From: Atractiella rhizophila
Lineage: Eukaryota
Assembly: GCA_021432655.1 (NCBI GenBank)
Contig: MU271666.1
Span: 1 to 33,630, forward strand
Direction of reading: 5' to 3'
Length of the DNA: 33,630 nucleotides
Part shown: in pieces, positions 4,213 to 27,858 of the stretch
How positions within the stretch are numbered: position 1 is the stretch's first letter
Layout: each line of letters begins with the position of its first letter
Notes under the pieces: generated by a model
Seen by the model: only the letters and a program-made list of their open reading frames with translations
Databases searched by the model: none
What the model was told of the DNA's origin: nothing
Program-made: the position numbers and the translations under genes

Positions 4213-4241
4213 GTTGATCAGGTGAAGTCCTTTCACTCTTC

Positions 4242-4320
4242 TGACAAGAGTGGGATTCGAACCCACGAACCGAAGATGAGAACTTGAGTCCCACGCCTTT
4301 GACCGCTTGGCTATCTTGCC
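4242..4320 (-). tRNA. tRNA-Leu-CAA: tRNA-Leu(CAA), intronless, 79 nt
   Basis: The reverse complement folds as a cloverleaf: acceptor GGCAAGA/TCTTGTC plus discriminator A; D-arm GCC-AAGCGGTCAAA-GGC; anticodon arm TGGGA-CTCAAGT-TCTCA; variable region TCTTCGGTTC; T-arm GTGGG-TTCGAAT-CCCAC. Confidence 0.95.
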
Positions 4321-4576
4321 ACCTGACAATGGATAACCTGCGCCGCCTTATTTATTCATTCAGGAAGAAACTTTTGGAAGATCAGCTGAGAAAAAATTAA
4401 TGTCCTAGTTTTCGTGTCAAAGTGGCGAAAAAAAGGCCAAGGGCGACAACGACTCTCAGGTGTGCGACTTCTCTGCTGGGCATGTTGCAACGGCGTTCGA
4501 TCAGGTCTGTTCACGTTGTCACAGCTCACGAAAAAGGTGTGAGGTCTTGCCTTTGGGATATTTGTGAGAGCTTTCA

Positions 4577-5292
4577 ATGTTGGTCGTAATGTCGACTACA
4601 TTCCATCCCAAACGCATCGGCGATAGAAAAAAGTGTCCGTCGGCTTTTGCCGATAGCAGCTACGAAAGCATTTCCGACGCTGACGAGGATTCTCCCACAC
4701 ATTCGATGTTGAGCGCCGCTCAGTTGTACTCTGAAGCGCTCAGCATGGATTTCGCTCAAGCCATGCTCTGTGACGCCAGGTTGAATGCTCAAGCGGCGTC
4801 GGACGCTCTCAAGGCCGCTGAGTTGCAAATGAAGTTGTATAAAAGGAGGCAGGATGATCGTGCTGCGGAGGATGGGGCCAGCAAGGATTCTGTGCTGGAA
4901 GGTGTGATAGCCGATGTGACTGGTAGGTAAGTTTATCCGTTTTTCGGCGATCTGTCTGACTATCTAGATGTCGTTTTAGGCATCATAGGGCACCTAACCC
5001 GTCGCCAGTTGCAAAAATTCGTCGCATCGGCGAAATCGAGTTCCGACTTGGTGACTTAAAACCTTCGTTGGCCCAAGAGGCCTATGACAATTCCAATTAT
5101 GATGCGTATTCCGTTTCTTTTCGAGTAGTAGTGATAGCGAGGGCTCTGTCCGGAGTGGTGATTTTGAACTCTGAAATGTATGTTTTGCGTCTCTGTATTA
5201 GTGGCGAATTGCCAGGCGGCGACAAGCGGAAATCGTGTCATGGTGAGATAAAGGGTTGTGGTGAGTGGGGAGAACATTGGCAAAGTGGCTGA
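4577..5292 (+). CDS. Hypothetical protein, probably two or more exons
   Basis: ORF 4577-4930 has a GTAAGT donor at 4927, a CTGAC branch point and a TAG acceptor at 4967. Splicing 4927-4967 joins it in frame to the ORF ending at 5292. No recognisable domain. Confidence 0.4.
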
Positions 5293-5305
5293 TGCCGGAC
5301 TCACA

Positions 5306-5316
5306 CTCCCCTGTCT
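5306..5316 (-). other. Putative polypurine tract (AGACAGGGGAG) of the gypsy element
   Basis: Purine-rich run immediately followed by TGTGAG on the element strand, at the far end of the reconstructed 3' UTR. A complete 3' LTR does not follow. Confidence 0.55.
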
Positions 5317-6291
5317 AGGGGAGGACCCTCAGGCGTTCCTCCCACTAGCTACCCAAGCTTATTTTGGAGCTCGCAACCAAATAGGCCTGGGCCACGCGCT
5401 CATGGACACAACGCGCAGTATAACGTGTCGGCAGTTTGCGTGCTCATTGCCGGTCTGTCTTCTTTGTGGGATAATGTGTTGTCGAGTGAACAAAGATGGG
5501 TAAACAAAAAGGTAAAAAGCAAACATAGGACACCATAAACATCAAAACTAAAACAGAGTGTGAGATGAGGGGGGTCATTGTGCACTTCGCAATTGAGGGA
5601 TTTTGAAATTTGACCAACAAACCGGTCGCAGATCTGTCCGTTGAGCGCCTCGCTTAGACCTATGTTCAACAATGTGTCTATGGAGTCACCTAGCGAGACG
5701 TGCAGAGGAGTAGATCCTCTTAAAGTGAGGGGGAGGGGACCTCGCGATTGAGGGCAATTTTCATAAATGCGACATTGGTGATGGTGTGAGAACGCAATGA
5801 GCATTCGTCTTTGACGGGTGACGAATGGACTCACCAACGACCCAGTCGCTGACTCGCCCGTTGAGAAGCAAGTCGGTGCCTTGTCTTTGTCAGGCTTGCC
5901 CCTACGCATTACCGAAATGCACCATTTGAAGTCACGTGACCTACTTTAATACATCGTAGGATCACGTGCCTACCCGTCGCCGCTTTGCTCACGATTCGCG
6001 CTGACCGCTGCCTTCCCCCATCTCACATGAATCCGCCGCTCAGCAAGCCTTACACATTTCGCCGTTCTGCACCGTCTCCATTATTGCCTTATTATCCTTT
6101 CTCACTTGTACTGCTCAGTATGTCTTATTTCCGAGTATGCCCTTTATTGCTTTCCTGATCTAGCTATCTTACATGTTTCAAGAAACGTATGTTACAGTTT
6201 ATGGTAGTGCCTTTACATATGTATATATACATCGAGATGTAATGGTGGTGACCTCAGAGTATTCTCTTAGGTTTACCTCCACTACAGGTTA

Positions 6292-6319
6292 CATCATGAA
6301 AAGCTTAAATGACTGATCA
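6292..6319 (+). repeat. Left terminal inverted repeat CATCATGAAAAGCTTAAATGACTGATCA
   Basis: Reverse complement of 12927-12954 with one mismatch. Confidence 0.93.
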
Positions 6320-6605
6320 GCATCTGATGGCTCCTGGTGCCTGACGACAACTGAGCCAGCGCTGACCAGGGCCTAGTGAGTTCTTCTCACTGACTGATAA
6401 CCATGATCAATCTGGTGAATCCTGACAAAGTACTGATCAGGAATTGGTCTGCACTGAACGGGTACTGATCATGAACTGGTCTGACGTGAACGTGTTTGCA
6501 AGATAAATGTAATTACAGTATATAGAATGCATTGAAAAACAGCAAAATGAAAGCTATCCATGTTCAAAAGCTAGATATTATGAAAGAGAGAGAAGTCAAG
6601 ACAGC

Positions 6606-9600
6606 TCAGGAGAGATTTTGAAACCGTAGGAATAGATCAGCCTCTGCAAGGTCATTAACATGATAAAACCCATTGTCGACCGGATCTGGTTGAATATAAC
6701 AGCTTCGAGCAATGTTTTCCGTCAGAATAAAGCTGAGTTGCTCTTGTCCTTGGAGAAGAGGCATGCCAGACAAGTAATGCCTTCCGACCATTTATACTCA
6801 CAAACTAATGCCAACTGGAACTCCTTATCTTGTATTCGACAAGAAAGTAGACGGATGACGTGTCCAAAAGAGACCGTGTTGTTGTGGTTGCGCACCATGA
6901 CGTCGTCATAACATGGTTTGCCGCTGGTCTGCCAGTTCGGATGAGAGCGAATGAGGTCTTCGTACTCTCTTTCGTCAACCCACGAATTAAATGAGCAGCG
7001 AAAGAGTGTATAATCCGTAATCTGAGAGCTATGAGTAAGCGATGCTAGTGCATAATCAATTGCGAGAATGGGAACGTACTGTGGACTCGTCAATCTGAGG
7101 TAGGTGCTCCTGGCGGACACGTATGGGGGTTGAAGGATTTGATGGCTCGTAGGAGGAAGAGTCGGAGGTCATTAACGAAGTCTTGTCGATTATTGAATTC
7201 GAGGGAAAGCTGGTGGAAGTAGGTATGAATGTGAAACCGTTTCGACAAGCCACAAAGACGGAAGTTGGGAGTACCGTTCTGAATCGGGGTTCGGCTACGG
7301 TCCTCTTTACCACAATTGAGCTGCAATGCATTGACAGCATCGATGCGCCGTTCAATCGTTTGAATCTGCATCATCTCGAACGCATGCTGTGCCATCTACG
7401 TTCGCCTAAGTTGAGCTTGAAGTTTGAACGGCGCACAAAACTCACCGATTCTCCAGTTTCGCCATCAACTGTACTGCGAATAGCTCGAGCAATTACATGC
7501 TCTTTGAGAGGATGATGAGCCCTCTCGCTGTGTGCTGTGGTTTGATGATCCAGCGTGCCGCCTTCGCTGATCATGTCAACAAAATGCTGTGGTAGATGAC
7601 TTTTCGGAAACTTGTCGGACATGCCGAAATGCTTGTGCAGCGTCTGCAGTGAAGCGTTGTGAGAGGATGCAATTACAAAACTGAGGCGTACCTTGAGGGC
7701 AGCTTCAAACCGCTGCAAATGATGATTTCGAAGTATTGAAATTCGATCATCATCTTGAACGTGCATTTTCACAAGGACTTCGAAAGCGGCCAACGCTCGC
7801 AATGCCGGAATCACCTCTTGCTCAATTTCTGCAGGAAGGAGACCAATCAACCCAACAATCAAGCACTGTACCCCAGCAGTCAGTTCGGTACTAAGTGGAG
7901 AGAACCAAAAGACCATTCACCTTCATTGCATCTTGAATTTCCATGCAAGTAAAGCTCTCAAGGTTAGTCAACCCTCGTTTCGGAACATGCCGCAAAGATC
8001 CATACGACGGCAAGGAAATCAAGCTGGAGTACGCGAGGATGTATTATAAATTTGCTCTGTAGAGAGTGGCAGAGACTCACTATGAATCTACCTGTTCTTT
8101 CTTTGCTGTTGAGAGGTTATCGAATAACTTTTGCATGACGTGATCTTTGTACAGTCCACCAAAGACAAGCAAAGAGTCCGCGGCAATGGATTCGTAGACG
8201 TCACTGCATTTCAAGCGTCGAAAAGCAGACTGCTGAGACCTGAGCATGAGCAATTCATTGCGATGGCGCGGTGGCATACCTTTTCAGGGCGCAAAGACGA
8301 CACGCTTGTCAATTCCTTAACCGCCACACCCGTGCCTTTCGTATCTTGGGTCCGTTGGTATTGCTGGAGCTGACGTTGTGCTTGCTCCAAGCTTCTCTTT
8401 GGAAATTGCTTCGTGAGCCAGTGAAGATATGCTTGTGGAACGAGACAAATTGGGCATTTAAACTCAGAATTGACACCGAGGAGGAGGAGGATGATATAGC
8501 TAGTGAATGATAGTGAGTCCCAACGAAGTAACAGTGGAAACGACTCACAGTTCTGCCAGATCCGCCTGCAGAAGGAACAGACGGGGGAAAATGAGTTTAT
8601 CAAACTCAGTTCCGACTCGAACCCGGAATCCGACTTGCTCGTATCGTCTTATTTGCTTCAAAACTAATCCTATCACCTTGTGATAAACAGAGCGTCGGTA
8701 TAGGCGAAATTTTTTGTTTTTCTTCTGCTGATCTGTAGCAGGAATCTGATCCCTCGTAAATGAATTTGACGAAATTGGGATTGGGAAAGTCAATGTACTT
8801 ACTTCGGACTGAAATCCGATGAGCTGGCACCCTCCTTTTCAATTTCCGCTCCATTCTCGCAAAGGAACATTCCCGAGCCACATATAGATAGGATGAACTG
8901 TTTTTTGTCCAAATTTCACGGCACTCGTCCCATCTGAGTACAGGATGATGGCACCGACGCATCCGTCATGGTTGGGCAATGAATCCTGGGTATTTACTAC
9001 CTCAGCGCCTTTCACTAATGTAGCAAGAATACACACCTGCAGTTTCCCACCATCGTTTGGTTGTCCACACCTCGTCGTACACCCTCACATCGCGCGAGGG
9101 TTGCTCATCAGTCCTTTTGAACTTCTTGACAGGGTAGAATTGCATGTGCTGCCGTGTACTGTCGTCTCGGATCACCTCCTTCATGATATCTATCGGATCC
9201 CGAATGTAGACATGATGCTGTATCCTTTGTCCTTCAAACTCAGCAGAAATAAGATGTGATCGAAACTGCTTAAACTGAGTCAGTATCAATCTTTCAAAAC
9301 TAAGAATCCACAAACCGCAACGGTCACACTCATCCGATCCTTCTTGAGAGTTTGTCGAAGCTCCTTGAAGGAATCAAGGGTAAAGTTTGGAAGGCCACAT
9401 TTCTTAAGGTTACGGAAGTGAGCAGTGATGTCACGCTGGGTCATCCCTTGGAAAAAGACATGGGAAGCCATTTCATAGTCTACTTCGCTCTTGAAAGGAT
9501 GATGGGCTGGAATGCTGCCATTGCAGCTTGCCACCGGAGACTTGGAGACAACACGAAAATGCGAGGAACTTGAAGAGGGGTACGAAGCGGCGAGGGAATC

Positions 9601-10185
9601 GGGATGTAAAACCTGGAAGTAGCGCCACCTAGATCTTGCTGCAACTCTGTATCTAGCTCCTCTTCATTGGCTGAAGAAAGATCAGGAGACTGTACTGGAG
9701 TTGGTAGGGGATCTGGCAGCACGAAATCAAGTGCGGGTGATGGAGGGTTCGATAATTGATAATGTTGTGGCTGATTAAAATGCACTCCGAAGTCTAACTC
9801 CCAATCATTCGGTTTTGTGTGAAGTGAACACACAGACTGACCCACCTTCAACTTGCTTGACATCAGAATGGATGTTCTCATCCACTTCTTCATCATTGCT
9901 CGATTCGGAGGTGTCAGAATCTTGTATATCCTTTGCTTCATCGTCAGTCAATGGAGCTTGAGACAGTAGGAATGAACTCACATCCTCAGCTGATCCTTCA
10001 ACTATCCCCCCGTCTATTCTTATAGATTTCCAGCCAGCTGACGGTACAGTAGCTTGATGCTTCAGAGATCGATGTTTTCTAAAACCACCTCTGGCGAACG
10101 AGATGTGTATAGCGCGATAACATGCGCCAGGAGCTGTCATTATTGCAAGAAAGAGTAGCAAGAGCAGAGGAGGATCAGCAGACAT
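6606..10185 (-). CDS. Plavaka-like DDE transposase, multi-exon, probably damaged; 5' end uncertain
   Basis: Successive minus-strand ORFs give YIRDPIDIMKEVI, VYDEVWTTKRWW, GAIILYSDGT (first catalytic D), HPIYMWLGNVP, FLLQADLAE, CPICLVP, DSLLVFGGLYKDH and FPKSHLPQHFVDMISEGGTLDHQTTAHSERAH (catalytic E). The order and motifs are typical of Plavaka transposases. There is an apparent frameshift near 7125. Confidence 0.82.
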
Positions 10186-11055
10186 GGGAGGAAGAGCGTG
10201 CCCAGCTACGAGAAGAGCTGGAAGCCATGAAAGAACAGCTGCATGCAGACGAACCCCCTGCCAAGAGACGACGCTCGACTCGTGTTGTTCCTACAGCACC
10301 TTCAAAACTCGCCAAACTCCAAGCCTATCGAGCTGGAAAGGCAGCGGTGCTGCTCTATCAAGCGTGGCCAATGGTGGTCGACAGCGTCTTTGCCAAGAGG
10401 TCAGAGACTCCTGAACATCCTGACGATGCAGAGTGTGAAGTGGTATCTGACGATGAAGAGGTAGAGGAAGAAGGAGATGAGCAAGATCGAAAAGAGAAGC
10501 AACAGAGGAACCACGAATGCGAAGTCCGCCACACCTATCGGAGGTCTAACTTCTTCAAGTTCATTTTTGGGCGTCTCCCACCCGAAGCTGTTGAATGGCA
10601 CAACAGCGCATGGTTTCAACGCGAAGTATTGTCTTTCCGCAGATCTGACATTACATCGTAATTGAAAGGAACAGGTGCTACGAGGTCTCGCTGAACAGAA
10701 GAGCGACAACGCCCATCGAATGTGAAACAACCTTGTCGACATCTTTGATGTCAAATCCTCAACTTCAGCAGATCTGAAGTCTCCCAAGGCAAGACAATAA
10801 AATGACAAAATTCAACAGCACACTCTGAAGGAGCAACATGAAAATAAGTTTAGGGAGTTGATGTCTTTGTGGAATAAAGAGGTCTTTCCTCGGGACGATG
10901 ATGAAACAGATAGTTCTCGCGTAGCCCATGGCCATGGCACAAGTGATGCAGATATTTTGGAAGGTTTGATGTCGATGTTCATAATGAAGATAATGAAGAA
11001 GGAGAAGAGATGGAGGATGTGTAGAAATGCTCCACACGAACACAAATTGATGTAG
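10122..11055 (+). pseudogene. Second (accessory/cargo) gene of the DNA transposon: coiled-coil N-terminus, basic NLS-like patch, acidic tracts; two in-frame stops
   Basis: ORF 10122-10626 (QELSLLQERVARAEEDQQTWEEERAQLREELEAMKEQL; PPAKRRR), intron ~10627-10675, then VLRGLAEQKSDNAHRM*NNLVDIF...RQ*NDK...WNKEVFPRDDDETD to 11055. Confidence 0.6.
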
Positions 11056-12926
11056 ATAGATATTCATCTTGCACATAAACATTATTGTTATTCCGACTGA
11101 GAAATGCTTGCAGGAGCCATTAAGAAAACCATCTAACCCATCCAGCAAAGAACACGATGGAAGAACGTACAAATTGGACTGTATAATCCCTTGCAGCCTC
11201 ACTACTTCCTTTGAGACTGTTTAACTAACGTAAACCGTTTTAAAAGCGCGGACACCGGATCAGGAGAGCCTTAAAGGCTTTTAAGAGAGGGGGTAGGTAG
11301 GGGGAAGGGGATGAAATTACGGTAGGAGAAGCACAATACTCTACATTCTGTTCTAAAGCGAAAGGACTAGTCAGTGGCCGTTGCCACCTAACCATTCTGA
11401 AATAAGTGCAATGGCAGAGAATCCATCACCCATTGGTATATTATTTGCTTCCCCCTTTCCCCCTTCCGTTGCTCAGCTCACACTCCTTCCTGCTCAATTC
11501 GAGTTGTGCAATGTAAGTGCGAGAGGGCGTGTAAGTCTGGCTGAAAGTGGGAACTCTGGTCCGCACTCTGCCACAAAGAAGTATAACTCCCCCTGCTTTC
11601 TACGGTGACCCTAGCACGCGAAGAAGAACAGCAGACCGTGGCAGTGAAGGAAAAGGGACTCGAACCAGCTCGAACTCGTTTTGAAATTTTGAACTTTGGT
11701 TTGGTTCAAGTTCTACTTTCGGCCGCCGGTGGCAAAAAGGGCAAAGTTGAACGTCAACGTCGTACGAACGAAGTGGCCACCCTCCTTCAACTGCAGCTCT
11801 CCTACCAACCTTCCGGCTCGTCTGCGCATTGTATGAAGATGTCCCATATCTCCTGAACCCAATCACGGTGCCATGGCAGACGCGGCGGTGGTGAAGCCAA
11901 GTTGCTAATGTTCAGCACTGGCCGTGCAAAATGCAGGTGAGCAGCCATTCAAGTTCAAGTTGGTAAGAGAAGGGTTCAACATTCAAGCTCAAAGTGCCAT
12001 ATTGTGCATGAAAAAAAGGCTGAAAGTGTGATATAAATTGCCACCTGATCGCCTGATGTCTCTCGTGTTACGCTTGACATTTTCAAGTTTTTGAGGTGTC
12101 AGCGTTGCAATTTACTAGGGGGTATGTAGCAAGGAAGGAAAGCGTGATTCTAGCATTGAATCAACACCTTTTCAAGGTTTGGAGTGCTTTCGTCGCTCTT
12201 TTGTTTATTTTTGTCTACTTGGCTCTTCGTCGTCCCTAGTAAGCGGCAGTAACACTGACGTGGTGGTTTGGGGGGTTGAGCCAGGCTCAGTTGTGTCTCT
12301 TTACGATTATTTCCAACCTTCTCCCACTGCTCGCAAGAGGTGTATCCACCGCCCTGCGACCAGCGTCCTTTCCAACCTCCAAGATTCACGCTGAGATGAC
12401 GCCTGACGCCCCACCACTTCGTAGACATGGACAACATCCGTTTGCACCATTCATTCCGAGTCAACCAACAGGTCCGTGGTCCCTTCGTTCGATTAGTTCC
12501 TAGTTATCCTGCTGTGGCATGCATCTAGTGGAGTGTGCTTAATTCTTCGAGCCTACAACGGCATTTGCAATGGATAATGGCTGACATTCCCTTCAGAAAA
12601 GGTCATATCAAGTACTTAAGTGCTTCAGAGTGAAAGAGACATGAAATGGTACTTTCCGCTTACTACCATCTTACTGCCTGAGATGTGCCTGATACACTCC
12701 TATCGCACTCGGATCCCCTTCTGCGCACAATGCTCTAAGTAATGATCACTACCTGATACGACTAAACATCCTTCATGATATGCATCTGTTCAAAAAACTT
12801 CTACATGATCACCGGCTGAAATGTTTCCCTAAGGCTTCCGATCACATCTTCTCAGACTGTTGTATTACCTGATTACTTGGCAATCAGCTTTCCGAAATCT
12901 GATGAACCTGATGGACTGATCAATAT

Positions 12927-12954
12927 TGATCAGTCAGTTAAGCTTTTCATGATG
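12927..12954 (-). repeat. Right terminal inverted repeat (CATCATGAAAAGCTTAACTGACTGATCA on the minus strand)
   Basis: Matches 6292-6319 at 27 of 28 positions. Confidence 0.93.
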
Positions 12955-13148
12955 TAGTCTTCTCATGCCATACTATTCTCTTAGGTTTACCTCCACTACA
13001 GACGCATCGCCCATCGGCGACCGCACATAGTGTTTGCCGTAACAGTCTTGACCTAAGTACCAAAGACTAGGATTTCACCTAGCAGGGCATATAGGGGTGT
13101 TGGACCCCTCAAAGTGAGGAAGACCCTTCAGCGCGTTTTCGTTGAAGG

Positions 13149-13648
13149 TTATGAAAACGCACATTCGGGACGAACTGCGAGAGGGTGTGCAGTATGATAG
13201 TCCTTTATAGCATCCTGCAAATTTTCCTAGATCTGCGATGCTGATCCACTCGTCCTCAGATGGTAAATACCCTTTGTATCGAACGTGATATTTGAAACTC
13301 TATTTCGGGTACCGAACCATTTTCTATCGACAATTTTTACAACTTCCCATTCCTCAATTCCATTTACCAATTCCCAAGGTGGTTTGGGTAACTGGATTCT
13401 GCCAGGGATGTCATCTTCGTTGACTTTCGTACTAGACCCACATGGAACATGGGATGTATCTTCCATGAGGATGGCAACTCAAGTTTAAGGTTGAGGGGAC
13501 TCAAACTTGCAAAACGCAAAATGGGCCACGCCATTTGTCGTCTAACTTTTTGACAGGTCTCGTCGATTTGATGTTTTTCGCGCTCAACCAGACGAAATCG
13601 CCGACGTGATATTCAGGCGCCGGTGCGTGTTTTCCGTCATAATGCTTT
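13149..13648 (-). pseudogene. Displaced 3' end of gypsy pol: integrase GPF/Y region plus chromodomain
   Basis: Minus-strand translation KHYDGKHAPAPEYHVGDFVWLSAKNIKSTRPVKKLDDKWRGPF, then IHPMFH and EEWEVVKIVDRKW (chromodomain), ending at TAA 13151-13149; frameshifted. Confidence 0.88.
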
Positions 13649-13998
13649 TGTCAGGTTTGCATCTTACGCAAATCGGCGCCCGTTCACCGGATTGCATCTC
13701 CTATCGCCCATTTGCGTTCCCTGTGAATCGGCGCCCATTCGCCCATTTGCACCTACATCACCACTTAGCCCAATTGTGCCTATCCTCCTCTTATTAACTC
13801 CGTGTAATCCCACTGTCACTTCCCCTTTTAGTTCTCTTACATGTTTCATCTGCTCTTCTCTACGCTCTGTGGCAGTGTTATTCCACTTGTATATATAGAT
13901 CGGAGAATAGTGGAGGTGACCTTAGAGTATTCTCTTAGGTTTATCTCCACTACAGACGCATCGCCCATCGGTGACCGCACATAGTGTCAGCCCTAACA
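13649..13998 (+). repeat. LTR (350 bp), currently in the 5' LTR position of gag-pol
   Basis: TGTCAGG...CCCTAACA; TATATATA at ~13890; inverted copy at 18369-18818; 5' flank GCTTT (13644-13648). Confidence 0.93.
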
Positions 13999-14038
13999 GA
14001 AAAATACTCTCTCTCTTTTCAAAAACCAAACTTAAAAA

Positions 14039-15345
14039 ATGTCGGAGGTTTGGGGAGATATGGAAACGCGCGAATCGCCGACGAGCGAAGAACACATCCA
14101 TCACTTAGGAAGGATGTTCCAATCTCTACACCTTACAACCGAAAACCAGTTCAAAAAAATCGAACAAGACCTCATAGCAAGTTTCAACCAACAAAATGCA
14201 CAAACCTCCCAAAATGCGCACGAAATTGCGCAACTGAGGTCCGACGTCCAGAACACAAACGACCGAATTTTACAATTACTGGACTCCAGACTGCCTCCTC
14301 CTAGAGACAGTGGAACCACCTCCCCCTTTTTATCGAGAACAGACCCAATACCCCAAACTTACTCTCCTCCCTCTATACCTCAAAATGCACAAGTTTCGCC
14401 TTATGCAGGAATCAGACTTGCCACACCCTCTCTCTTCAAAGGAGTGCCTAGTTCAGCGCCGACCATTCTTCGTGAAATTCACATCTACACGTCTGCCATC
14501 CCACGACAGTTCCCTTCAGAAAAGTCGAAAATCTCATTTACTCTATCGTATATGAAAGAAGGAGACGCTGAAAAATTCGCCTCTGGGATACCCCGCCGAC
14601 TTGTCGAAAATGAGGAACAGATTTCGTGGGAGCAATTTTTGTCGGAGTTCAGATCGCCTTTTTGCAAAACTGACCACAAACTTATTGCACAAACGAAACT
14701 GTCTTCCCTGCAACAGAAGGGCAACCTGGAGTCCTACATCATCAAGTTTGAGGAGTTGGCAAATCAGGCAGACTTTGATGATGAGGCGCTCACATTTTTC
14801 TTCAAACGGGGCCTCAACCCTGCCCTGTACCTTAAAGTGACACAAGGTGATTCCCCAAGTCCCTTGAAGAGTGGAAGAAAAAAATGCGGCGAATTGACGC
14901 AGAAGAATTTGCGCATTCCAGCTTCTTTCAGGGCATCTCATCGGCGACGAGTGGAACCCAAAATACACCTTCAGCAAAGAAAGATCACTCAAAATCGACG
15001 AAACAGAAGGACAACAGCGCACTCCCTCTGTACCGACCGAGCGCGGCTTTGTCGCCCATCGCCGCTTCGCAACCTCATGAAGCCAAAGACCCCGACGATA
15101 TGGAGGTGGACGCAACAAAGTTCAGACCGCCTCGTTGTCGAAGATGCCAAAAGATCGGACACAGAGAGAAGGAATACAAGGTGTCCATGAGCAAAGAGCA
15201 ATATCTTCATGCACAAGGGAAATATTTCGACACTCGTCTCGTAGAACAAGAACGACAATCTGCGCAAATCGCCGACCGGTCGCCGAAAACGAGCGTCGCT
15301 CAATCATCGGATCTGGAGGAGGATTTTTCAGACGGCGATGGGTGA
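14039..15345 (+). pseudogene. Retrotransposon gag, broken by one frameshift near 14850
   Basis: Retrotrans_gag-like motifs KISFTLSYMKEGDA, SWEQFLSEFR, LQQKGNLESYIIKF and FFKRGLNPAL. It continues in the -1 frame as PKSLEEWKKKMRRID, DPDDMEVD and a degenerate zinc knuckle CRRCQKIGHREKEY; stop at 15345. Confidence 0.88.
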
Positions 15346-15365
15346 AAGGAGTGTCCCCGTCGCCG
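15321..15365 (+). promoter_or_regulatory. Putative -1 programmed ribosomal frameshift signal (gag-pol)
   Basis: G_GAT_TTT heptamer (15321-15327) in the gag frame, a 5-nt spacer, then a 10-bp stem CGGCGATGGG (15333-15342)/CCCGTCGCCG (15356-15365). The -1 frame is open past the gag stop. Confidence 0.75.
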
Positions 15366-18300
15366 ACTTGCAATTCATTTTCGTCATCTAAAATCACTTC
15401 CAACAAAATGCTGCTTTGCGCAGATTTCCCTTCTCCCGAACAAGACTCCCCATTCCCAAAATTGTGCTTTCCAACTTGGAGACAAAGATGCGCAGATGTC
15501 GCAAAAATGTACGACAAAGTCCATTTACATTCTTACAATATCGATGGATCCCTCAATCATCAATCAGGGGGGTTCCATCCATTCTGTCGCTTATTTACCC
15601 ATTTCGATCGCCGCCCATCACGAAGTTTGGCAATTCGCTGTGGCGGAGTTGGGGACAGTCGACATGATTCTGGGTCATGACTGGCTAAGACACCACAACC
15701 CAGAGATTAACTGGGCTTCAGGGAAAGTTGAGTTCTCTCGTTGCCCCACCAGTTGCAACGCGGTTGATGTGTCTACCACAGGAGACCAACTTCCATCGTC
15801 TTCTTCCTCAATATGTGCTGCCATGACAAAATCGCAGAAACTGGCGAAAGACGCAGCGGCGATGAGACCAAAGAGCGTTGTCGAAATACCGACGCAAATC
15901 ACCGATTTTGCAGACATTTTCGACGACGAAAAATTCAAAACCTCGCTTCCTCCTCGACGACCTTGGGACCATGCCATCAACCTCAAACCAGAAGCTCAAC
16001 CATATGCTGGTCCCGTCTACCCCTTGAAAAAAGACGAACAAGCGGCGCTCGACCAGTTCATTGATGCTGAACTGAGCGCCGGTCGTATACGTCCTAGCAC
16101 AGGTGAACATGGTGCTTCCGTCTTTTTTACACACAAAAAAGACTCACCCGAACTTCGTCCCCTTTTCGACTATCGTAAGTTGAATGAAGCCACAATCAAG
16201 GACAAAACTCCACTCCCTATCCAAGCTGAGCTTTCTCCATGGTCTCTGGTAAGAAATTTTTTAGCAAGATTGACCTGAGAAAAGGTTTCAACAACATTCG
16301 CATCAAAGAAGGAGACGAGCACAAAGTGACGTTTCGCACAAATCGCGGACTTTTTGAACCATTGGTGATGTATTTTGATCTCTGCAACTCACCGGCAACT
16401 TTTCAGGCTTTCCTGAACTCTATTTTTCGCGCGATGATCGCCGCTGCGTTCATCTTCATATACATTGATGATATCCTCATTGCGACAGAGACTGAAGAAG
16501 AACATTGGGAACGTGTTCAACAAGTTTGTCAAATTTTGCGCGAAAATGGGCTTTACGTAAATTTGCAGAAATGCGTTTGGTGTCATGAGGAGGTGGAGTA
16601 TCTAGGCTTGATCATTTCCAGCAGAGGGATCGAACCAGATCCAGTGAAAGTTGCAGGAGTGATGGATTGGCCGGAACCAAAAAACATGAAGGAAGTCCAA
16701 ATGTTCCTCAGTTTCGCTAATTTCTATCGCCACTTTTGCGACAGATTCAGTTACATCGCATGACCTTTATATGAACTGACAAAAATGGAGGTTTCCTGGG
16801 ACTGGGGGGTAGATCAACAACGTTCGTTCGCCGCTTTGAAACAACTCATGACTTCGGCGCCTGTCTTGGCACATCGCGAACAAATAGGACGGTTTTTGCT
16901 TGAAGTCGATGCATCAAATTTCGTGACAGGCGCCGTTTTGTCGCAAATGAAGCCAGATGGGAAGTTCCATCCTCTCGGTTTCGTGTCAAAATCGCTCAAC
17001 GCCGCCCAGAGGAACTACGACACCTACGACAAAGAAATGCTCGCGATTATGTGTGGACTGCAAGAATGGAGACACCTCCTTCAAGGTACTGATGAGCCAT
17101 TTCTGATCTTGACCGATCACAAAAATCTTGAGTATTTCAGAATGCCTCAAAAGTTGAATCGGCGACAAGCGCGCTGGATCACTGAACTTGCATCTTTCAA
17201 CTTCTCTCTTTTACACCGTCCTGGACGGAACTCCGCAAAACCAGATGCGCTCAGTTGGCGACCGGATCACAAACCGGGGACTTGTGACAACTTCGATGTA
17301 GTATTACTCCCAGAATGTTTTTTCAACACAGATCGTATCACCATCAACGCGACTGGGAGCGCGGTCGCGCTCACAAGATAAATGTCGGAGTTGAGTATAC
17401 TGGAATGTGTGAAAAAGGTACCTGAGAACAAGTAGTCAAGGCCTTGAGAGAGATCCTAAAAGAACCAGTCGATGCAATTCGCCGACGGGAGTGGCAAGAA
17501 GTCGATGGCGCTCTATACTTTCGCGGAAAACTCTACATTCCCCGAGACGACGAAATTCGCTGCTCGATTCTGCAAGATCTGCATGACTCGCAAATCGCCG
17601 GACACCCAGGAGTAAAATCGATGATACCTCTCGCAAAAAGGTACTACTGCTGGCCAGGTTTGGCGCATTACGTTCGCCGCTATGTCAGCGCCTGTCATAC
17701 TTGTCACAGAACGAAAAACTTTCCCCCCCCACCTGTCGGGTTTTTGCAACCAAATGACATTCCCACACGTCGATGGCAAATTGTCACCATGGACTTGGTT
17801 GGACCACTCCCAGAATCTGGGGGGTTCAACATGATTTTCATCATAGTTGACAGACTCTCAAAACACACCCATCTCATTCCCACCCATTCGATGATGGATG
17901 CAGAAGGCCTTGCAAGACTTTTTCGCAACACGTATGGAAGTTACATGGACTTTTCGATATATCACAATTTTTGATCGCAGCAACAAGTTTCTGTCCAAAT
18001 TCACATCTGCGCTTTTTCGCCTATTAGGTATCAAAGGTTCACCATCGACAGCCTATCACCCGCAAGTGATGGTCAGACTGAATGTATGAACCAAGAGGTT
18101 GAGCAATATTTGCGCATTTTCTGCAACCACCTTCAGGATAATTGGGTGGAAGGACTTCCCAACGTAGAATTTGCGCTCAACAATCGCGTTAGTTCGGCGA
18201 CGGGCGTAACTCCATTTTCGCTCGATTGCGGTTAACATCCTCGCATGGCCATTGAACCCATCTCCGACGAAGAAGTTCCCGCAGCAGCGCAATTCGTCGA

Positions 18301-18368
18301 AAGGATGCAAATCACTGACCGGGAAGCACAAGCGGCACTCGAACAAGCAGCTGATCTCATGGCAAAGC
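15321..18368 (+). pseudogene. Retrotransposon pol (PR-RT-RNase H-IN), multiple frameshifts and stops, cut at the integrase by an inverted LTR
   Basis: PR C-terminus DMILGHDWLRHHNPEINW; RT DYRKLN, FSKIDLRKGF, YIDDIL; RNase H EVDASNF, YDKEMLAI, TDHKNL; integrase HHCC (HDSQIAGHPG...CHTC), VTMDLV, STAYHPQ. The Ty3/gypsy domain order is preserved. Confidence 0.93.
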
Positions 18369-18818
18369 TGTTAGGGCTGACACTATGTGCGGTCACCGAT
18401 GGGCGATGCGTCTGTAGTGGAGATAAACCTAAGAGCATGATATGACCTGAAGACTAACCGGGAGTGGAGATAAACCTAAGAGAATACTCTAAGGTCACCT
18501 CCACTACTCTCCGATCTATATATACAAGCGGAATAACACTGCCACAGAGCGTAGAGAAGAGCGGATGAAACATGTAAGAGAACTAAAAGGGGAAGTGACA
18601 GTGGGATTACACGGAGTTAATAAGAGGAGGATAGGCACAATTGGGCTAAGTGGTGATGTAGGTGCAAACGGGCAAACGGGCGCCTATTTGCACGCATGCA
18701 AATAGGCGACGGGAGACACAGATTGGCGACGTGCGCCGATTCGCAGGGAATGCAAATGGGCGATAGGAGACGCAATCCGGCGAACGGGTGCCGATTTGCG
18801 TAAGATGCAAACCTGACA
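18369..18818 (-). repeat. LTR (450 bp) in inverted orientation
   Basis: Reverse complement of 13649-13998 with 11 substitutions and two extra internal repeat units (53 and 47 bp). Flank AAAGC at 18364-18368. Confidence 0.93.
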
Positions 18819-19979: not shown

Positions 19980-20389
19980 TGTGAGCCGGCACCTGTGGCA
20001 GGCACAAACATGTACAATCCATAGAATGAAAGCTAAGATACATCCACTTTCTCTCACTCACGTTCCATCCCCAGTCGCCCATCCATCTATTGTGCTTCCA
20101 TTACCACTTAGCCCAAATGTGACTATTCTCCTCTTATTGACGCCACGTAATCCCACAATTGCCTTCCCCTTTTGGTCCTCTTACATGTTTCATATGCTCT
20201 CCTCTATACTTCGTGGCAGTGTGATTCTGCTTGTATATAGATCGGAGAGTAGTGGAGGTGACCTTAGAGCATTCTCTTAGGTTTATCTCCACTACAGGCT
20301 AGTCTTCTCATGTCATATCATGCGCTTAGGTTTATTTCCACTGCAGATGCATCACCCATCAGCGACCGTACATAGTGTCCGCCATAACA
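19980..20389 (+). repeat. Diverged LTR (~410 bp) of the same family, no matching TSD
   Basis: TGTGAG...CATAACA. The 3' two-thirds align with the other LTRs (TATATAGATCGGAGAGTAGTGGAGGTGACCTTAGAG). Flanks TTCTC and TAATG differ. Confidence 0.8.
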
Positions 20390-21149: not shown

Positions 21150-21463
21150 GCTAGAATGTGCACATTCATCTCCTTTGATTCATAGCATTTTTTCTTCTAC
21201 TCTTAAAGGGACTTGGGAAATCTTCTTGGGTCATGTTGTGGAGGGCAGGATTGAGCCTATATTTGAAGAAGGTAAGGGTTAAAAAGCTAAAAAGGGGCAG
21301 CAACAGAAGGGCTACACTGAGTTGATAATAGGAGAGTAAACATAAATCACACCAAGCAGCGGCAGGAAGCATAACACAGTGATGGCAGAGACAAATGGGT
21401 GAACAGGCACCACGAAGTAAACATGCAACCAGGCACCAATTCACACAGAATGCAAACCTGACA
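21150..21463 (-). mobile_element. Internally deleted remnant of the same gypsy family: LTR 5' part (21463 to ~21281) fused to a gag fragment (~21280-21150)
   Basis: TGTCAGGTTTGCAT start at 21463. FFKYRLNPALHNMTQEDFPSP aligns with gag FFKRGLNPALYLKVTQGDSPSP (14790-14865). Confidence 0.75.
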
Positions 21464-23120
21464 CATCTTTGGAGCATAACAAGAAGGTGGCTGTGCCTTC
21501 CATCTCCTCCACACTCCCATCACACTGCTCTACCCGACACTCTCTCAGAGAGTTCCTGGCATTCTTGATCTCCTGCTGGGGCCATGCTCCAAAGAACAAC
21601 AAAAGATGCAAAACCTTTTTTTGTTGCGACTTCACAAAAAACCAATGGATGAAGTCTGCAAAGTCAAAGGGATCCACCACGCAGTACTGGACATTAATGT
21701 GTTGTATCCCCACTGCATTCTTGAGAGTGCTGAAGAAATGTGGGTCGACTAGGCGTGAAGATTCCTCGCCCCCATCGAGGTCGAGGTACTTAAGTTGTCG
21801 GAGGTGTGATATGTCCAGGGGAGCTGGTAGGATGGAGGTTTTTCCATTAGGCGAAAAGGGAGCAAGCCTGATCTCGAGATGTTCCAGAAGAGGCGGCAGA
21901 GGGCAGTCTGAGATGGATGGATGGAGTGGGCAAATATTGGAGAGAGTCAGACGTCGCAGGGAGGGTGGGAGGGAGAAGGATGAAAGAGGCGGGTACTTGA
22001 AAAGAGTAAGGGTTCTGAGGGCAGAAGATAATTGAAGGGTGGCTGAAGCCGAAGATGCGGAGGAGGCCACTTCGCTAGCAATGAGTCCTTTAATCCTTCC
22101 TCTTGTCCTCAACATAAAATCCGCCACCTCCTCGGCTCTCCACTTCCTTCGGCCACAGCGTCCAAAGGTCACCATCTCCACGCATTTCAACTGTGCAATT
22201 TCATTCAATACCATCTTCGTTGCTTCTTCGTTCCAATGTACATCCAGATACACTGCCGTAATATTTGGAGAGCCTACGATGATTTCTTTCAGCGTCGCAA
22301 CCTTGACATATTTTGCCAACCAAAGTTTCCTCCACAGACGTCCAGCACCAGGATGTTCTCGTAAGCGAGCATGTTTACCTTCTGTGGAATCAGGTTCATT
22401 CCGATAAGGAACCCAAAGCTGCCTCCACTTCTTGCACACATGGGAGAGATTGGGAGTGTTACTTCCGACTTCACCACCTGTGACAAAATCGAAGATGGTG
22501 CACAGGAGCTCGACAGGCAGTCGCGAGATAAAGCACGGATTATCCGCTAGCGATGGCGAGAGCGAGACTTGGATGATGGCCGCGGGGCCCGGCTGGAGGT
22601 ATGGCCGGTAAAATGATTCGTCATTACGGTTAGGAACGAAGCGCTGTTTGTGTCCGGAGTATAGCGGAATGGGGCCGAAAATTACTTCAGGCGGATCTGG
22701 AAGAAGTGCAAACGTCCGAGTGATGGGAGTAAAACTTGATGGCAGGGCACCTGCAGTCTGTCTGCCCACCTCACAGGTTGCCGTGATAGCTCCTCCATTG
22801 AATGAGATATCCAAATTTGCTCTATCATCGTTTCCAACTGCATGACAAATGTATTTAAGTGAGCAGCAGGATAGTTTTGAGGACATCTGCGCGTAATTGT
22901 AATCCGCCAGTTGTGGAGGCAAGACAGAAGCGGTGAGTGTGTGGATTGATGAAGGTAGGCACGATAGAAATGAGGGGAGAATAGAGAGGTAGAGTGAAGT
23001 GCAGATTCTCGCTTGGACGATGACATTGATCAGGACGGTTGAGTCTGGTCCCCGTATCGGAGAATAGTGGTGCAAGATAGACATTTGCTGCTCATTCTCC
23101 TGCTCAAGAAAGATGCTAGT
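21441..23120 (-). CDS. F-box/LRR-like (RNI-like) unit 1, intact frame; probable last exon of a multi-unit gene
   Basis: 547-aa ORF with F-box-like ISRLPVELLCTIFDFV...LSHVCKKWR followed by Leu-rich repeats (LRTLTL, LRRLTLSN, LEHLEI, LKYLDLDG). The frame extends 12 codons upstream to an AG acceptor at 23121. Confidence 0.8.
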   Translation of the reverse strand, partial: TSIFLEQENEQQMSILHHYSPIRGPDSTVLINVIVQARICTSLYLSILPSFLSCLPSSIHTLTASVLPPQLADYNYAQMSSKLSCCSLKYICHAVGNDDRANLDISFNGGAITATCEVGRQTAGALPSSFTPITRTFALLPDPPEVIFGPIPLYSGHKQRFVPNRNDESFYRPYLQPGPAAIIQVSLSPSLADNPCFISRLPVELLCTIFDFVTGGEVGSNTPNLSHVCKKWRQLWVPYRNEPDSTEGKHARLREHPGAGRLWRKLWLAKYVKVATLKEIIVGSPNITAVYLDVHWNEEATKMVLNEIAQLKCVEMVTFGRCGRRKWRAEEVADFMLRTRGRIKGLIASEVASSASSASATLQLSSALRTLTLFKYPPLSSFSLPPSLRRLTLSNICPLHPSISDCPLPPLLEHLEIRLAPFSPNGKTSILPAPLDISHLRQLKYLDLDGGEESSRLVDPHFFSTLKNAVGIQHINVQYCVVDPFDFADFIHWFFVKSQQKKVLHLLLFFGAWPQQEIKNARNSLRECRVEQCDGSVEEMEGTATFLLCSKDVSGLHSV

Positions 23121-23169
23121 CTATAGCCAGTACAGGGGTCAGAAGAAGAAAGCTAAGAACAAATCATAC

Positions 23170-24860
23170 CTGTCTCGCATTCCCGGATAATGAAACTTGC
23201 GCCATTCGATCCCCTTCAGTAATCCACGACGATTCATGCGCCACACTCACTCCACATTCTCTCATCGTTCGTCTAGCCATCTCGATTTGCTGCGGTTGCC
23301 ACTCGCCAGGGAATAAGAGCACACATAGATTGCGTTCGATGGTCCAGTCTCCCTTTTCCGATCCATGCTCGTCACTATCCATATCCCCCTTCAACCCACG
23401 ATCCCCAAAAAACCAGCGGGTGAAATCTGGGAAGTCGACACATTCCACCGAGCAGTACCGAAGGTAAATGTGTTTTATGTCCTTTGAATTCCTGAGAGTG
23501 CGAAAAAACCTGGGTAAAACAAAGCGTGAAGTTCCCGCGCCACAGTCTAGGATGAGGTGTGTGAGATGTTTGAGGCATGTCAAGTTGAGCGGAGTGGGTA
23601 GGGTGGAGGCGTTTCCGTCGTCCGAGTAGGGAGCAAGCTTGATCTCGAGATGTTCTAGAAGAGGCGGCAGAGACGAGGTTAAGAAAGAAGGAGGGAGTGG
23701 ACACATGTCGGAGAGAGTCAGCCAGCGCAGAGCGTGTCCGAAGGAGAGCGCTGCGAGAGGCGGGTACTTGTAAAGTTCCAGGTGCTCCAGGCCAGGAGGC
23801 AAGTGAAGGCTAGCCGATGCTGAAGGGGTAAAAAAAGAGTCCGCTACATCACTAACAAGGAGCTTTCTGATCCTCCCCTTTGCCCTTCGCATAAAGTTCT
23901 CAACCTCCTCGTTCCTCCACTTCCTCACGCCACTGCAACCAAAGGTCACCATCTCCACCGATTTCAAGCGTGCAATTTCATTCAATATCAGCTTCGCCTC
24001 CTCTTCATCCCAAAATGCGTCCATATACACGTCCGTAAGATTCGGAGAGCCCAAGATGGTTTCTTTCACTTTCTCAAACTCAATATATGTTTCCAACCGA
24101 AGTTTCCTCCACAAACGTCCAGCACCAGGATGTTCTCGCAGGCGAGCATGTTTACTTTCGGTGAAATCAGGTTCATTCTGATAAGGAACCCAAAGCTCCA
24201 TCCACTTCTTGCACACATGCGAGAGATTGGGAGTGTTACTTCCAACTTCGCCACCTGTGACAAAATCGAAGATGGTACAAAGCAGCTCGACAGGCAGTCG
24301 TGAGATAAAGCACAGATTATCTGCTGGCGATGGCGAGAGCGAGACTTGGATAATGGCCGCGGGATTCTGATGGAGGGATGTGTCATCACGGCAGACGTCC
24401 CTCCGTTTGTTTCTGGAGATGGGGCAAAAATACCCTGGGAGCGATGTTCTGGAAGAAGCCCAAACCGGCAGGTGATGGGAGTGACGCCGGATGGTAGCGG
24501 AACTGTAGCCCATTCACCAACCTCACAGTGTACTGTGATGGATCCTTCGTTGAAGATGATGTACAGGTTCGCTGTACCATCGGTTTCGACTGCATTTTTG
24601 ATGTCTTTAAGTGAACAGCATACTTTCGAGGGCAGCTGTGTATAATCATAACCTGATTGGGGAGGCAAGATCAAAGTGGTAAGTGTGTGGACGGATGAAG
24701 GTAGGCACGATAGAAAAGAGGGGTGGATGGAGATGTGTAGTGGAGTGCTGACTCCCATTCCCGGTGGAACGATGACATTGATTAGTGCGGTAATGTCTGG
24801 TCCACGTGAATCCTGATGTAAGACAGGCCGTTCATTCTCTTGTCGAGGAAAAATGCTAGC
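23170..24860 (-). CDS. F-box/LRR-like unit 2; one frameshift near 24420 (mutation or sequencing error)
   Basis: ORFs 24066-24758 and 23164-24513 together align end-to-end with unit 1 and carry the same F-box-like motif. The segment is bounded by an AG acceptor (24861) and a GTATGA donor (23169). Confidence 0.75.
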
Positions 24861-24880
24861 CTGTAGCTAATGAATCTAGA

Positions 24881-26590: not shown

Positions 26591-26661
26591 CTGCAGCCCA
26601 TCCCGTTTGTGTTAAAAGGGAAGAGATGACATCTGAATAGAGAAAGAGGATCAGAATTTAC

Positions 26662-27858
26662 CTGTTTTGCATCATTAACTTGAACCATTTCAGATTCCAC
26701 CGTTCTCGGTTCTTGCAGCGTGACGCCGTGGACTTCTGCGTTCTCTGTGAGGCGAGGGTCAAACCTTCCTTGATCACCGGAATCCACCTTAATCAATTGG
26801 TCCGTCAAGCTCACATCCTGCATGGTAGGGTAATCACGCCTCGCATTGGGGTCCGCCGCCTCTGCCTGGACCGTCGAAGAAATGATTGGGTCTATTCCGG
26901 GATAAATCATGAGCTTTGTCTTCTTCGCCGAATTTTCGAATTCCCCTCCCATCTCATCGCGTTCGAGCGTTGAAAGACGGCGTTTCGGAGGGCGGGAAAG
27001 AGAATCTGAGGAACACTCAATTGCATCCTCTTCGTGAGTGATCATGAGCTTCATTTTCTTTCGCATCTTTTTGAAATCCTCAGTCCTAACACATTCCGCG
27101 GCGGAACGGGGACGTTTTGGAGGGCGCTCAGGGTTATTAATTGGAGAAACGATCTGGTTCTCTTCGTGTGAACTCATGAGTTTTATCTTCTTTCCCCGCT
27201 CTTCGAATTCGAGTTCCCTTGTCGACCCTGGGACGCCAAAGGGGGAAAGAGGGCGTTTGGGAGGCCTGTGTGACGCAACACTGACGGCACCAACGTTCTT
27301 TTGCAAACATGGATCGTTAGCCGACTCGGAGAACGCCGCATCATTCTGCTGCAGCTCCGTTATGCCCTCCGATGAAGCAGCGCTTTCAACTTCGAGTGAC
27401 TCAAGTTTGATCTCCGTTGTCCTCTTGCCATGATCCAGAATTTCTGTCTCCCCTGACGTGGACAGATCATAGAGAGGCTTGCAGTCGTCTTCGATATTGT
27501 CAAAGCTTCTGAGTGAGGCCGTAGTTTGAGAAGTTCCGCTGTCCATCGACGACGGATGGGGAGGTTGCTTCGCTTGATCAAAATGGAGAATGGGATCCGC
27601 GGGACCTTCATCGCCGTCGTTAAAAGAGTCTGCATCGTTGGGTACCCAATATCCTTGGTCTCCTTCCCCTTTCCACCTGTTGCGCTCGAAAAATCTTCGT
27701 CTATCGCTATCGGTAGCACGAGACTCTTCTGGCATGGCTTGCCATGCGTAGACCATCTCTATGAGGGTCCATTCGGAGTTTTCCAACTGAAGCACGTCGC
27801 TCATCAGAGCCATGAAGTTTTCCCTCGAAAAGCCTGAGTTGAGGAAACCTTGATCTCT
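26662..27858 (-). CDS. N-terminal exon (~399 aa) of the F-box gene: short helical segment plus acidic low-complexity linker with three basic repeats; further exons probably upstream to ~28700
   Basis: Long open frame ending AKQ|GTAAAT (donor 26661). An upstream 50-nt intron 27859-27908 (GTGCGT...CTCAG) keeps frame with ORF 27804-28073. Confidence 0.65.

Follow-up and report, generated by a model that had tools for sequence, protein, structure and literature searches.

The window analysed here is a stretch of 33,630 nucleotides from Atractiella rhizophila (contig MU271666.1), in which a decayed Ty3/gypsy chromovirus on the minus strand carries two related segments, R1 and R2, in its 3' untranslated region, with a solo LTR and a DNA transposon nested within it. 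Taken by themselves, this Plavaka-type DNA transposon and an F-box gene array would point to an Agaricomycete host.

The element and its nested insertions

Read along the element strand (minus throughout), the chromovirus sequence considered here includes the frameshifted 3' end of pol (13152-13648), comprising the C-terminal SH3-like part of the integrase and a chromodomain; the Pfam matches to SH3_Tf2-1 (13612-13367) and Chromo (13299-13078 frame) both fall under the curated cut-offs. This frame ends in ...HPLAVRPECAFS* at the TAA stop codon (13149-13151), and a tandem array starts at the next base. The first part of unit 1, which is R1, occupies 13045-13148 and has the head CCTTCAAC at 13148. 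Its second part (5755-5882) begins with AAGGCA (5882-5877), the 3' half of a helix that closes R1, and has its aligned counterpart in the tail of unit 2. Unit 2 (5600-5754), which contains R2, has the head CCCTCAAT at 5754, and the stub of a third unit (5560-5599) repeats CCCTCAAT at 5599 and then reads CCTCATCTC in place of the CCTCACTTT of the full units. The distal untranslated region that follows (5306-5559) ends in a purine-rich tract, ACAGGGGAG (5314-5306), whose position suggests a polypurine tract. Beyond it lies a short, strongly diverged LTR-like sequence (5128-5305), which starts TGTGAGTCCGGCA, as does the LTR at 19980, and has weak collinear similarity to LTRs of the LTR-A family. 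It probably ends at about 5128, with a contig joint at 5127; at 5143 the repeat family is still covered by 8-9 contigs. The array therefore sits between the pol stop and the purine tract with its LTR-like end, the latter being weakly supported.

Unit 1 is split by a solo LTR of the LTR-A family (5888-13044, plus strand; TGTCAGG...GTAACA, with TG..CA ends), which resembles the window LTRs at 13649-13998, 18369-18818 and 20090-20389 and is flanked by a 5-bp target duplication, AAGAC on the element strand (5883-5887 and 13045-13049). The solo LTR is itself split by a DNA transposon of Plavaka type (6292-12954), which has inverted ends of ~30 nt (6290-6319 and 12927-12956) and a TA duplication; Pfam places a Plavaka match at 9005-9373 on the minus strand (E 8.3e-10), and LTR copies free of the transposon, with the joint 6289->12955, are present in 11 (X1) and 4 (X2) contigs. 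The uninterrupted form of the array is likewise found in public runs: a loose end at 13047 runs on into the sequence of the 5882 side (25 of 30 letters, counted by eye), and a 300-nt contig from soil matches 5655-5884 and then reappears at 13110. The preliminary description had rebuilt the untranslated region across both insertions, and the AAGAC duplication, the collinear homology on either side of the break and these uninterrupted copies bear that reconstruction out. The window copy itself is dead, since its pol is frameshifted, it has received two nested insertions and it differs by about 8% from the family majority. The locus is nevertheless a well-resolved record of nested transposons (element, solo LTR and DNA transposon) that could serve for the dating of insertions.

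A tandem array inherited by the element family

The array consists of two units, of 232 and 155 nt and 66% identical (109 of 166 aligned columns), together with the stub of a third, that is, about 2.2 units with three heads, at 13148, 5754 and 5599. The motif had previously been given an extent of ~90-100 nt; its duplication stands, but the units are longer than this. The local alignment score of R1 against R2 is 73, compared with a null mean of 20.7 and a null maximum of 37 (z 16.3), and when the two parts of unit 1 are aligned one at a time, each is collinear with the second copy (z 10.1 for the first part and 8.3 for the second). The longest runs of identical columns (9, 9 and 8) are, by our own estimate, roughly those that chance would give at 66% identity. 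Tandem Repeats Finder reported no array in 5000-6000 because the units are split and diverged. An origin of the units from a decayed LTR was rejected: in 24 unit-by-LTR-by-orientation comparisons with the LTRs of the window there was no significant similarity, the best z (2.9) lying under the best of 200 shuffles.

The array is inherited by the whole element family, as both units are present in many copies in the runs of the organism and in a soil relative of ~92% identity. Position 13110 is covered by 24 (X1) and 17 (X2) contigs and R2 by 12-15, and one soil contig spans R1 to R2. In at least one genomic copy, with the joint 5849->13055, a 43-nt stretch is replaced by 11 other letters and the 3' half of the R1 helix is absent. 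Some stretches of the array have deeper contig coverage than others, and Logan contig depth is no copy number; an argument for the copy number of R1 based on it was dropped, X1 and X2 being at odds in their depths by position and by bin. Searches further afield for a DNA pattern of three blocks shared by the units gave no match in metagenome contigs or in prokaryote genome contigs, and a looser two-block pattern gave a single match in viral contigs, a chance one without the hairpin. A protein-guided search with the integrase/chromodomain piece recovered two distant relatives from metagenomes, at 46% and 39% identity, and both were without either motif; the same search of viral contigs recovered no relatives. 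The untranslated region of the distant relative L001 has no comparable repeat. The two units, 34% diverged from each other, have both been retained in a family whose copies are only about 8% apart, which suggests that neither unit is freely dispensable.

Hairpins, helices and the folding of the units

On the minus strand every block of the motif lies where it had been placed: CCTCACTTT at 13119-13111 in R1 and 5730-5722 in R2, then hairpin 1, at 13109-13093 (AGGGGT/ACCCCT) and 5720-5704 (AGAGGA/TCCTCT), and then GCTAGGTGA at 13083-13075 and 5694-5686. This pattern of three blocks is present twice in the window and in none of 100 shuffles. The 6-bp hairpin is present in both units with two double substitutions between them, as first described. 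The closing helix, which had also been presented as covarying and as forming in R1 only across the LTR-A insertion point, pairs TGCCCTG (13089-13083) with C (13045) plus AAGGCA (5882-5877) in R1, so that its halves do lie on either side of the insertion, and CGTCTCG (5700-5694) with CGAGGCG (5652-5646) in R2. It is a 7-bp helix with two double substitutions (T-A/C-G in two pairs), but in R1 one position is a C·A mismatch, and RNAalifold favours a different register. At 5698 the family majority has C, and with this letter all seven pairs of the R2 closing helix are Watson-Crick. The window has U there, a change that keeps the pairing as G·U on the element strand only. The G·U pairs of a second shared helix, UCAACGG with UCGUUGG/UUGUUGG, also form on the element strand only. 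GCTAGGTGA, which had been called invariant, varies in the family at 5691, where all contigs with another letter read G on the element strand (12 of 12 in X1 and 8 of 8 in X2), this other letter having a depth of 10,931/11,084 and 6,696/6,696, respectively.

All folding of R1 was carried out on sequence joined from two stretches of the window, and the hairpin was compared with column shuffles and with re-dealt substitutions (20,000 simulations each). A shared hairpin of at least 6 bp with at least two double changes arose in 1.0% of the column shuffles and in 2.0-3.3% of the nulls with re-dealt substitutions. RNAalifold, given two sequences at 66% identity, finds at least four 'compensatory' pairs in 31-42% of neutral simulations. 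The joint fold energy departs from column shuffles (z about -3, p 0.004-0.009) and stands at p 0.055-0.077 against re-dealt substitutions, the neutral-divergence null. Compared with dinucleotide shuffles, R1 is no more stable than its controls (z -0.38, 161 of 500 shuffles as good) and R2 is marginal (z -1.67 to -2.03, with 7 of 200 shuffles as good at the latter value); for R1 this is one of the outcomes that the preliminary description had named as refuting it. The opposite strand folds equally well (z -1.94; alifold energy -21.2 versus -22.45).

The three-way junction of the preliminary description is the optimum fold of R2, exactly as drawn, whereas the corresponding fold of R1 lies 5.1 kcal/mol above the optimum; in the full rebuilt untranslated region the R1 helices have pair probabilities of 0.001-0.14, and the inner helices of the junction are not common to both units. 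The possible pseudoknot between TCACTT and AGGTGA has a pair probability of at most 0.03, and its pairs are uninformative because they never vary. The support for structural selection is no more than nominal: a comparison of just two copies does not show such selection, the R1/R2 data do not bear out a selected structured RNA, and neither a three-way-junction nor a pseudoknot RNA is demonstrated.

The suggestion that the units match no known RNA family was confirmed against the Rfam covariance models. A scan of 5200-5900, which includes the intact R2, gave no matches at E up to 10, and a scan of 13030-13200, which covers R1 up to the break, gave five chance-level matches (12.6-15.6 bits, compared with gathering scores of 43-60). 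The sole match at gathering level in the window is a tRNA.

Origin of the units and comparison with known systems

We consider it probable that R1 and R2 are an ordinary, old tandem repeat of the 3' untranslated region that has diverged, perhaps with one small genuine RNA hairpin in each unit. A head-to-tail duplication, which probably arose through an error of strand transfer or template switching by the reverse transcriptase, fills the start of the chromovirus 3' untranslated region, and the resulting array then passed to the whole element family; the ancestral unit would have had a short GC-rich stem-loop, retained in both descendants. The apparent covariation comes down to four pairs, two of them in the 6-bp hairpin and the others in the closing helix, which carries a mismatch in R1; chance, synonymous-site drift or one-step template-switch repair could each account for it.

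It is possible, though in our judgement unlikely, that each unit is instead a selected, structured cis-acting RNA, in which the hairpin and closing helix would form a repeated site to which Gag/nucleocapsid or a host factor binds, with a part in packaging, export or stability. The retention of hairpin 1 with two double substitutions (p 0.01-0.03), the two further double substitutions of the closing helix, the joint fold energy relative to column shuffles, the agreement of the R2 optimum with the fold first drawn (z -2.03) and the perfect R2 helix restored by the family majority all speak for such an RNA, and the 3' region of Rous sarcoma virus (RSV) offers a parallel in two hairpin-forming copies of a direct repeat that serve RNA export (PMC9143442). 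Against it, only two sequences are compared, with no more compensatory pairs than the neutral null often gives, R1 is unstable and prefers another fold, strand asymmetry is absent, the inner junction helices differ between the units, the pseudoknot pairs are invariant and hence silent, and the 3' half of the R1 helix is missing from one or more genomic copies. A narrower form of the same idea, in which hairpin 1 and the 7-bp helix would make up a selected module, duplicated as a chromovirus cis-element that would act in export, stability or packaging as the paired avian retroviral repeats do, and also bound by an overlapping reading frame such that only the two stem pairs at third-codon positions could covary, seems to us distinctly doubtful. 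If true, no earlier example of a structured element would be known from the 3' UTR of a fungal Ty3/gypsy family.

The equal folding of the two strands and the perfect Watson-Crick inverted repeats formed by the hairpin arms in both units would also be expected of a feature of the DNA without RNA function, either palindromes kept or re-made by template-switch mutation, in which a single event copies one arm from its partner, or DNA sites for protein binding. Template switching reportedly gives rise to hairpins and apparent compensatory changes and maintains them (bioRxiv 10.1101/2021.04.15.439925; PMC8794818), but direct evidence for such an event here is absent and the G·U pairs, at 5698 and in the second shared helix, form on the element strand only; we regard this reading as improbable. 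Least credible is that the units are or were protein-coding, either as repeats that extend Pol at its C-terminus or as an additional small frame, and that the apparently compensatory changes are synonymous changes at third positions. Translated in the frame in which pol ends, R1 gives LTLRGPTPLYALLGE and R2 gives LTLRGSTPLHVSLGD, the latter within an open frame of 181 codons (5945-5403); the four changed stem positions are all synonymous third positions (AGG/AGA, GGT/GGA, ACA/ACT and CCC/CCT), the first block has 6 synonymous and 8 non-synonymous codon differences, and, on our reading, two family-majority letters bring the R2 protein nearer to that of R1 (S to P and V to A). The synonymous excess, however, has a p of only 0.07-0.08 and an antisense frame shows it equally, two in-frame stops lie between pol and R1 and one more within R1, and the gaps between the units measure 4, 11, 2 and 1 nt. 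Pfam gave no match even at E 10, none of 26 candidate homologues of near length passed E 0.001, and among 1.84 billion representatives the single match was a bacterial-type giant of fn3/Ig repeats. Coding was rejected as the main explanation, as was the more specific proposal of an ankyrin-like coding repeat, prompted by an apparent ankyrin-like signature, G-x-TPLH (no match to Pfam up to E 10, stops in and before R1, no homologues).

The diverged tandem repeat that we favour carries a caution for comparisons of this kind, in that two paralogous copies at 66% identity yield chance 'compensatory' pairs in a third of neutral simulations, and in that the apparent covariation here falls exactly on synonymous codon positions. 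To our knowledge the 3' untranslated regions of fungal Ty3/gypsy elements have hardly been studied, and the hairpins, if selected, would provide a first handle on the cis-acting RNA signals of these elements.

Small self-cleaving ribozymes are found in retroelements, the hammerhead in retrozymes and Penelope-like elements and HDV-like ribozymes in R2 and L1Tc, and the units resemble them as compact, multi-helix RNA motifs repeated within a retroelement; unlike them, the intact R2 matches no Rfam family at E up to 10, and R1, scanned up to the break, matches none above chance level, the hammerhead, HDV-like and twister covariance models included. We know of no need for an export element in fungal retrotransposon RNA. 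With the direct repeat (DR) or constitutive transport elements found in avian retroviruses (RSV, ALV) and in MPMV the motif shares a length of about 100 nt, a 3' untranslated position and a hairpin, and with RSV the presence of two copies (PMC9143442); there is no sequence or Rfam-level similarity, and the likeness is one of layout alone. In plant Ty3/gypsy elements of the Tat/Ogre group, hypervariable tandem repeats occupy the 3' untranslated region (Macas et al. 2009, cited in PMC7004042), and an origin by aberrant strand transfer during replication has been proposed for them (PMC7004042). The present array differs from these in its fungal host, in belonging to a chromovirus and in being only about 2.2 units long, with units of 155-232 nt that are 66% identical. 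Like the plant repeats, it is arranged head to tail, extends from the pol stop towards the 3' LTR of a Ty3/gypsy element and is inherited by the family.

A tandem duplication behind the pol gene

We show that R1 and R2, two motif copies on the minus (element) strand (R1, 13130-13045 continuing at 5882-5877; R2, about 5745-5645), are diverged units of a tandem duplication which lies in the 3' UTR of a fungal chromovirus, now decayed, and is carried by the whole family. Upstream of the array, 13648-13152 on the minus strand encodes a decayed Ty3/gypsy integrase C-terminus that includes a chromodomain; its Pfam matches, SH3_Tf2-1 and Chromo, both lie under the curated cut-offs, and its frame is disrupted by frameshifts. 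The pol stop, TAA, lies at 13151-13149 (minus strand). In other copies, a soil-metagenome contig among them, the final pol codons (13165-13169) carry about 27 letters more than in the window copy.

The unit holding R1 is split by a solo LTR (TGTCAGG...GTAACA, 5888-13044, plus strand) of the LTR-A family, other members of which lie at 13649-13998, 18369-18818 and 20090-20389. This LTR is itself split by a Plavaka-type DNA transposon (6292-12954) with inverted ends of about 30 nt, a TA duplication and a transposase match at 9005-9373 (minus strand; Pfam, E 8.3e-10). PMC12730594 counts Plavaka/KDZ transposons among fungal elements. The 6.7-kb transposon has fragmented coding and about two contig variants along its length in X1 and X2, public sequencing runs of the same organism, in which many LTR copies have an empty transposon site.

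The preliminary description had rebuilt the UTR by removing both insertions, and this reconstruction is right, because a target duplication, uninterrupted run contigs and collinear homology agree on it. The solo LTR has a 5-bp duplication on both sides, read on the element strand as AAGAC. Both excisions are confirmed by the runs: 6289 is joined to 12955 in 11 (X1) and 4 (X2) contigs, and a loose end at 13047 runs on into the sequence found at 5882 and below (25 of 30 letters agree by eye count). The join is also bridged in a soil-metagenome contig of 300 nt, which has 19 differences over 5655-5884 and resumes at 13110. The parts of unit 1 flanking the break are independently collinear with the first and second halves of unit 2 (z 10.1 and 8.3; 1000 shuffles each). 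The R1 helix that had been offered as independent support for the reconstruction is not needed for it.

After the join, R1 and R2 are identical in 109 of 166 aligned columns (66%); their local alignment scores 73, where shuffles reach at most 37 (z 16.3), and the head motif CCYTCAAY occurs three times (13148, 5754 and 5599). The array thus consists of a 232-nt unit 1, a 155-nt unit 2 and a third-unit stub, its first base directly after the pol stop. On its 3' side come about 250 nt of unique UTR, then a purine tract (5314-5306), then an LTR-like piece that is short and strongly diverged (5305 to about 5128). The units resemble no LTR of the window, and no Rfam family matches R2 or the part of R1 before the break. 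One contig in each run skips 5183-5303, after which 5127 joins, on the opposite strand, the first base of LTR-A (13649); in another copy, therefore, a complete LTR-A start comes immediately after the short LTR-like piece. The window has a similar layout where a partial LTR (18945-18819) directly precedes the LTR at 18818-18369.

Family copies and history of the element

At 13110, R1 is covered by 24 (X1) and 17 (X2) contigs, and R2 by 12-15. Given this coverage both units are a stable feature of the family and of a soil relative of about 92% identity, though the units differ from one another by 34%. All covering contigs differ from the window at four element-strand places. The family majority has a for g at 13110, with no effect on the fold; c for u at 5714, a loop position; c for u at 5698, which makes the R2 closing helix a perfect 7-bp Watson-Crick helix where the window has G·U; and g for a at 5691, within GCTAGGTGA, which had been claimed as invariant and is not. 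Searches of metagenome, viral and prokaryote contig collections retrieved no more copies of the units.

Between 5000 and 13700, transitions dominate the differences between the window and the run contigs (in X1: A>G 143, C>T 126, G>A 121, T>C 133; each transversion 19-43). At many places here no contig carries the window letter; either the runs derive from a different strain or haplotype, or this copy is private and decayed.

The gag-pol region (14036-18368, plus strand) and the integrase C-terminus (minus strand, from 13648 down) are halves of one element. Their break points, 13644-13648 and 18364-18368, share 5 bp, AAAGC, and coding across them reads LMAK/HYDGKH, where '/' is the break. Each half abuts an end of one of two mutually inverted LTRs, about 97% alike (13649-13998, plus; 18369-18818, minus). 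An inverted LTR likely inserted into the integrase gene, with inversion by LTR-LTR recombination following. If so, the 3' UTR with R1 and R2 is that of an abundant family, LTR-A, to which its own LTR-like 3' end (5305-5128) bears very little likeness.

The window as a whole is a nest of eukaryotic transposons adjoining ordinary genes. Among its features are a ubiquitin-hydrolase-like gene (0.6-3.5 kb), a tRNA-Leu(CAA) gene (4241-4321, minus strand, as the element, and about 800 bp past the end of the nest) and an F-box paralogue array (21-28 kb). This array and the Plavaka transposase match together indicate a fungal host, probably an Agaricomycete. At least three paralogous units of about 1.75 kb each, 65-74% identical, lie on the minus strand at 21400-27900 and 29800-32500; F-box domains occur in two of them and related further pieces at 29.8-31.5 kb.

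Possible conservation of an RNA fold and its alternatives

Selection for an RNA fold on the units is at most a candidate reading, with nominal support. Hairpin 1 was correctly described: its 6-bp stem pairs perfectly in R1 and R2 alike and differs between them by two double substitutions (G-C/A-U and U-A/A-U). The 7-bp closing helix around the proposed three-way junction carries two further double substitutions (U-A/C-G twice), but has a C·A mismatch in R1. The two-sequence RNAalifold energy lies below that of column-shuffled alignments (z -2.7 to -3.0, p 0.004-0.009). A shared local hairpin of at least 6 bp with at least two double changes arises in 1.0% of column shuffles and, when substitutions are re-dealt, in 2.0-3.3% of alignments (20,000 simulations each); hairpin 1 is thus nominally unusual. 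With any helix of this class spanning up to 120 columns admitted, 8-9% of nulls succeed. When one unit is fixed and the substitutions are re-dealt, joint energy reaches a z of only -1.5 to -1.8 (p 0.055-0.077), and 31-42% of these simulations yield at least four 'compensatory' pairs in RNAalifold.

Of the two units, R2 is the only one to support the larger junction; folded by itself it adopts just the drawn structure (z -2.03; 7 of 200 shuffles do as well). R1 does not exceed its shuffles in stability (z -0.38), its optimum differs and the drawn fold costs it 5.1 kcal/mol. The two units do not share the helices inside the junction. Across the whole rebuilt UTR, the pair probability of hairpin 1 is 0.02-0.14 in R1 and about 0.5 in R2, that of the R1 closing helix 0.001 and that of the pseudoknot pairs at most 0.03. 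The TCACTT/AGGTGA pairing is identical in both units and, never varying, is uninformative. The opposite strand folds equally well (alifold -21.2 vs -22.45; R2 z -1.94).

A minor rival, absent from the preliminary description, holds that the units are coding in the frame of the pol C-terminus, where R1 reads LTLRGPTPLYALLGE and R2 reads LTLRGSTPLHVSLGD, the latter within a 181-codon open frame (5945-5403), and that the stem changes are synonymous. All four 'compensatory' stem positions are indeed synonymous third-codon positions, and those two stem pairs are the only ones with both partners on third positions. Codon differences in the first block are 6 synonymous and 8 non-synonymous, yet the synonymous excess reaches only p 0.07-0.08 and an antisense frame is equally good. 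Two stop codons lie between pol and R1 and one within R1, the inter-unit gaps are 4, 11, 2 and 1 nt, and Pfam gives no match for the units even at E 10. Among proteins of near length, none of 26 candidate homologues reaches E 0.001, and the single match among 1.84 billion representatives is a bacterial-type fn3/Ig repeat protein. The chief effect of the coding alternative is to weaken the covariation argument. The hairpin pattern could also arise free of selection, by template-switch mutation (10.1101/2021.04.15.439925).

In the R1/R2 array a fungal element has its counterpart to the tandem repeats in the 3' UTRs of plant Ty3/gypsy elements, for which an origin by aberrant strand transfer in replication is proposed (PMC7004042). 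Should the hairpins be functional, the nearest analogue in layout would be the two direct repeats that lie in the 3' region of Rous sarcoma virus, form hairpins and promote export of unspliced RNA (PMC9143442).
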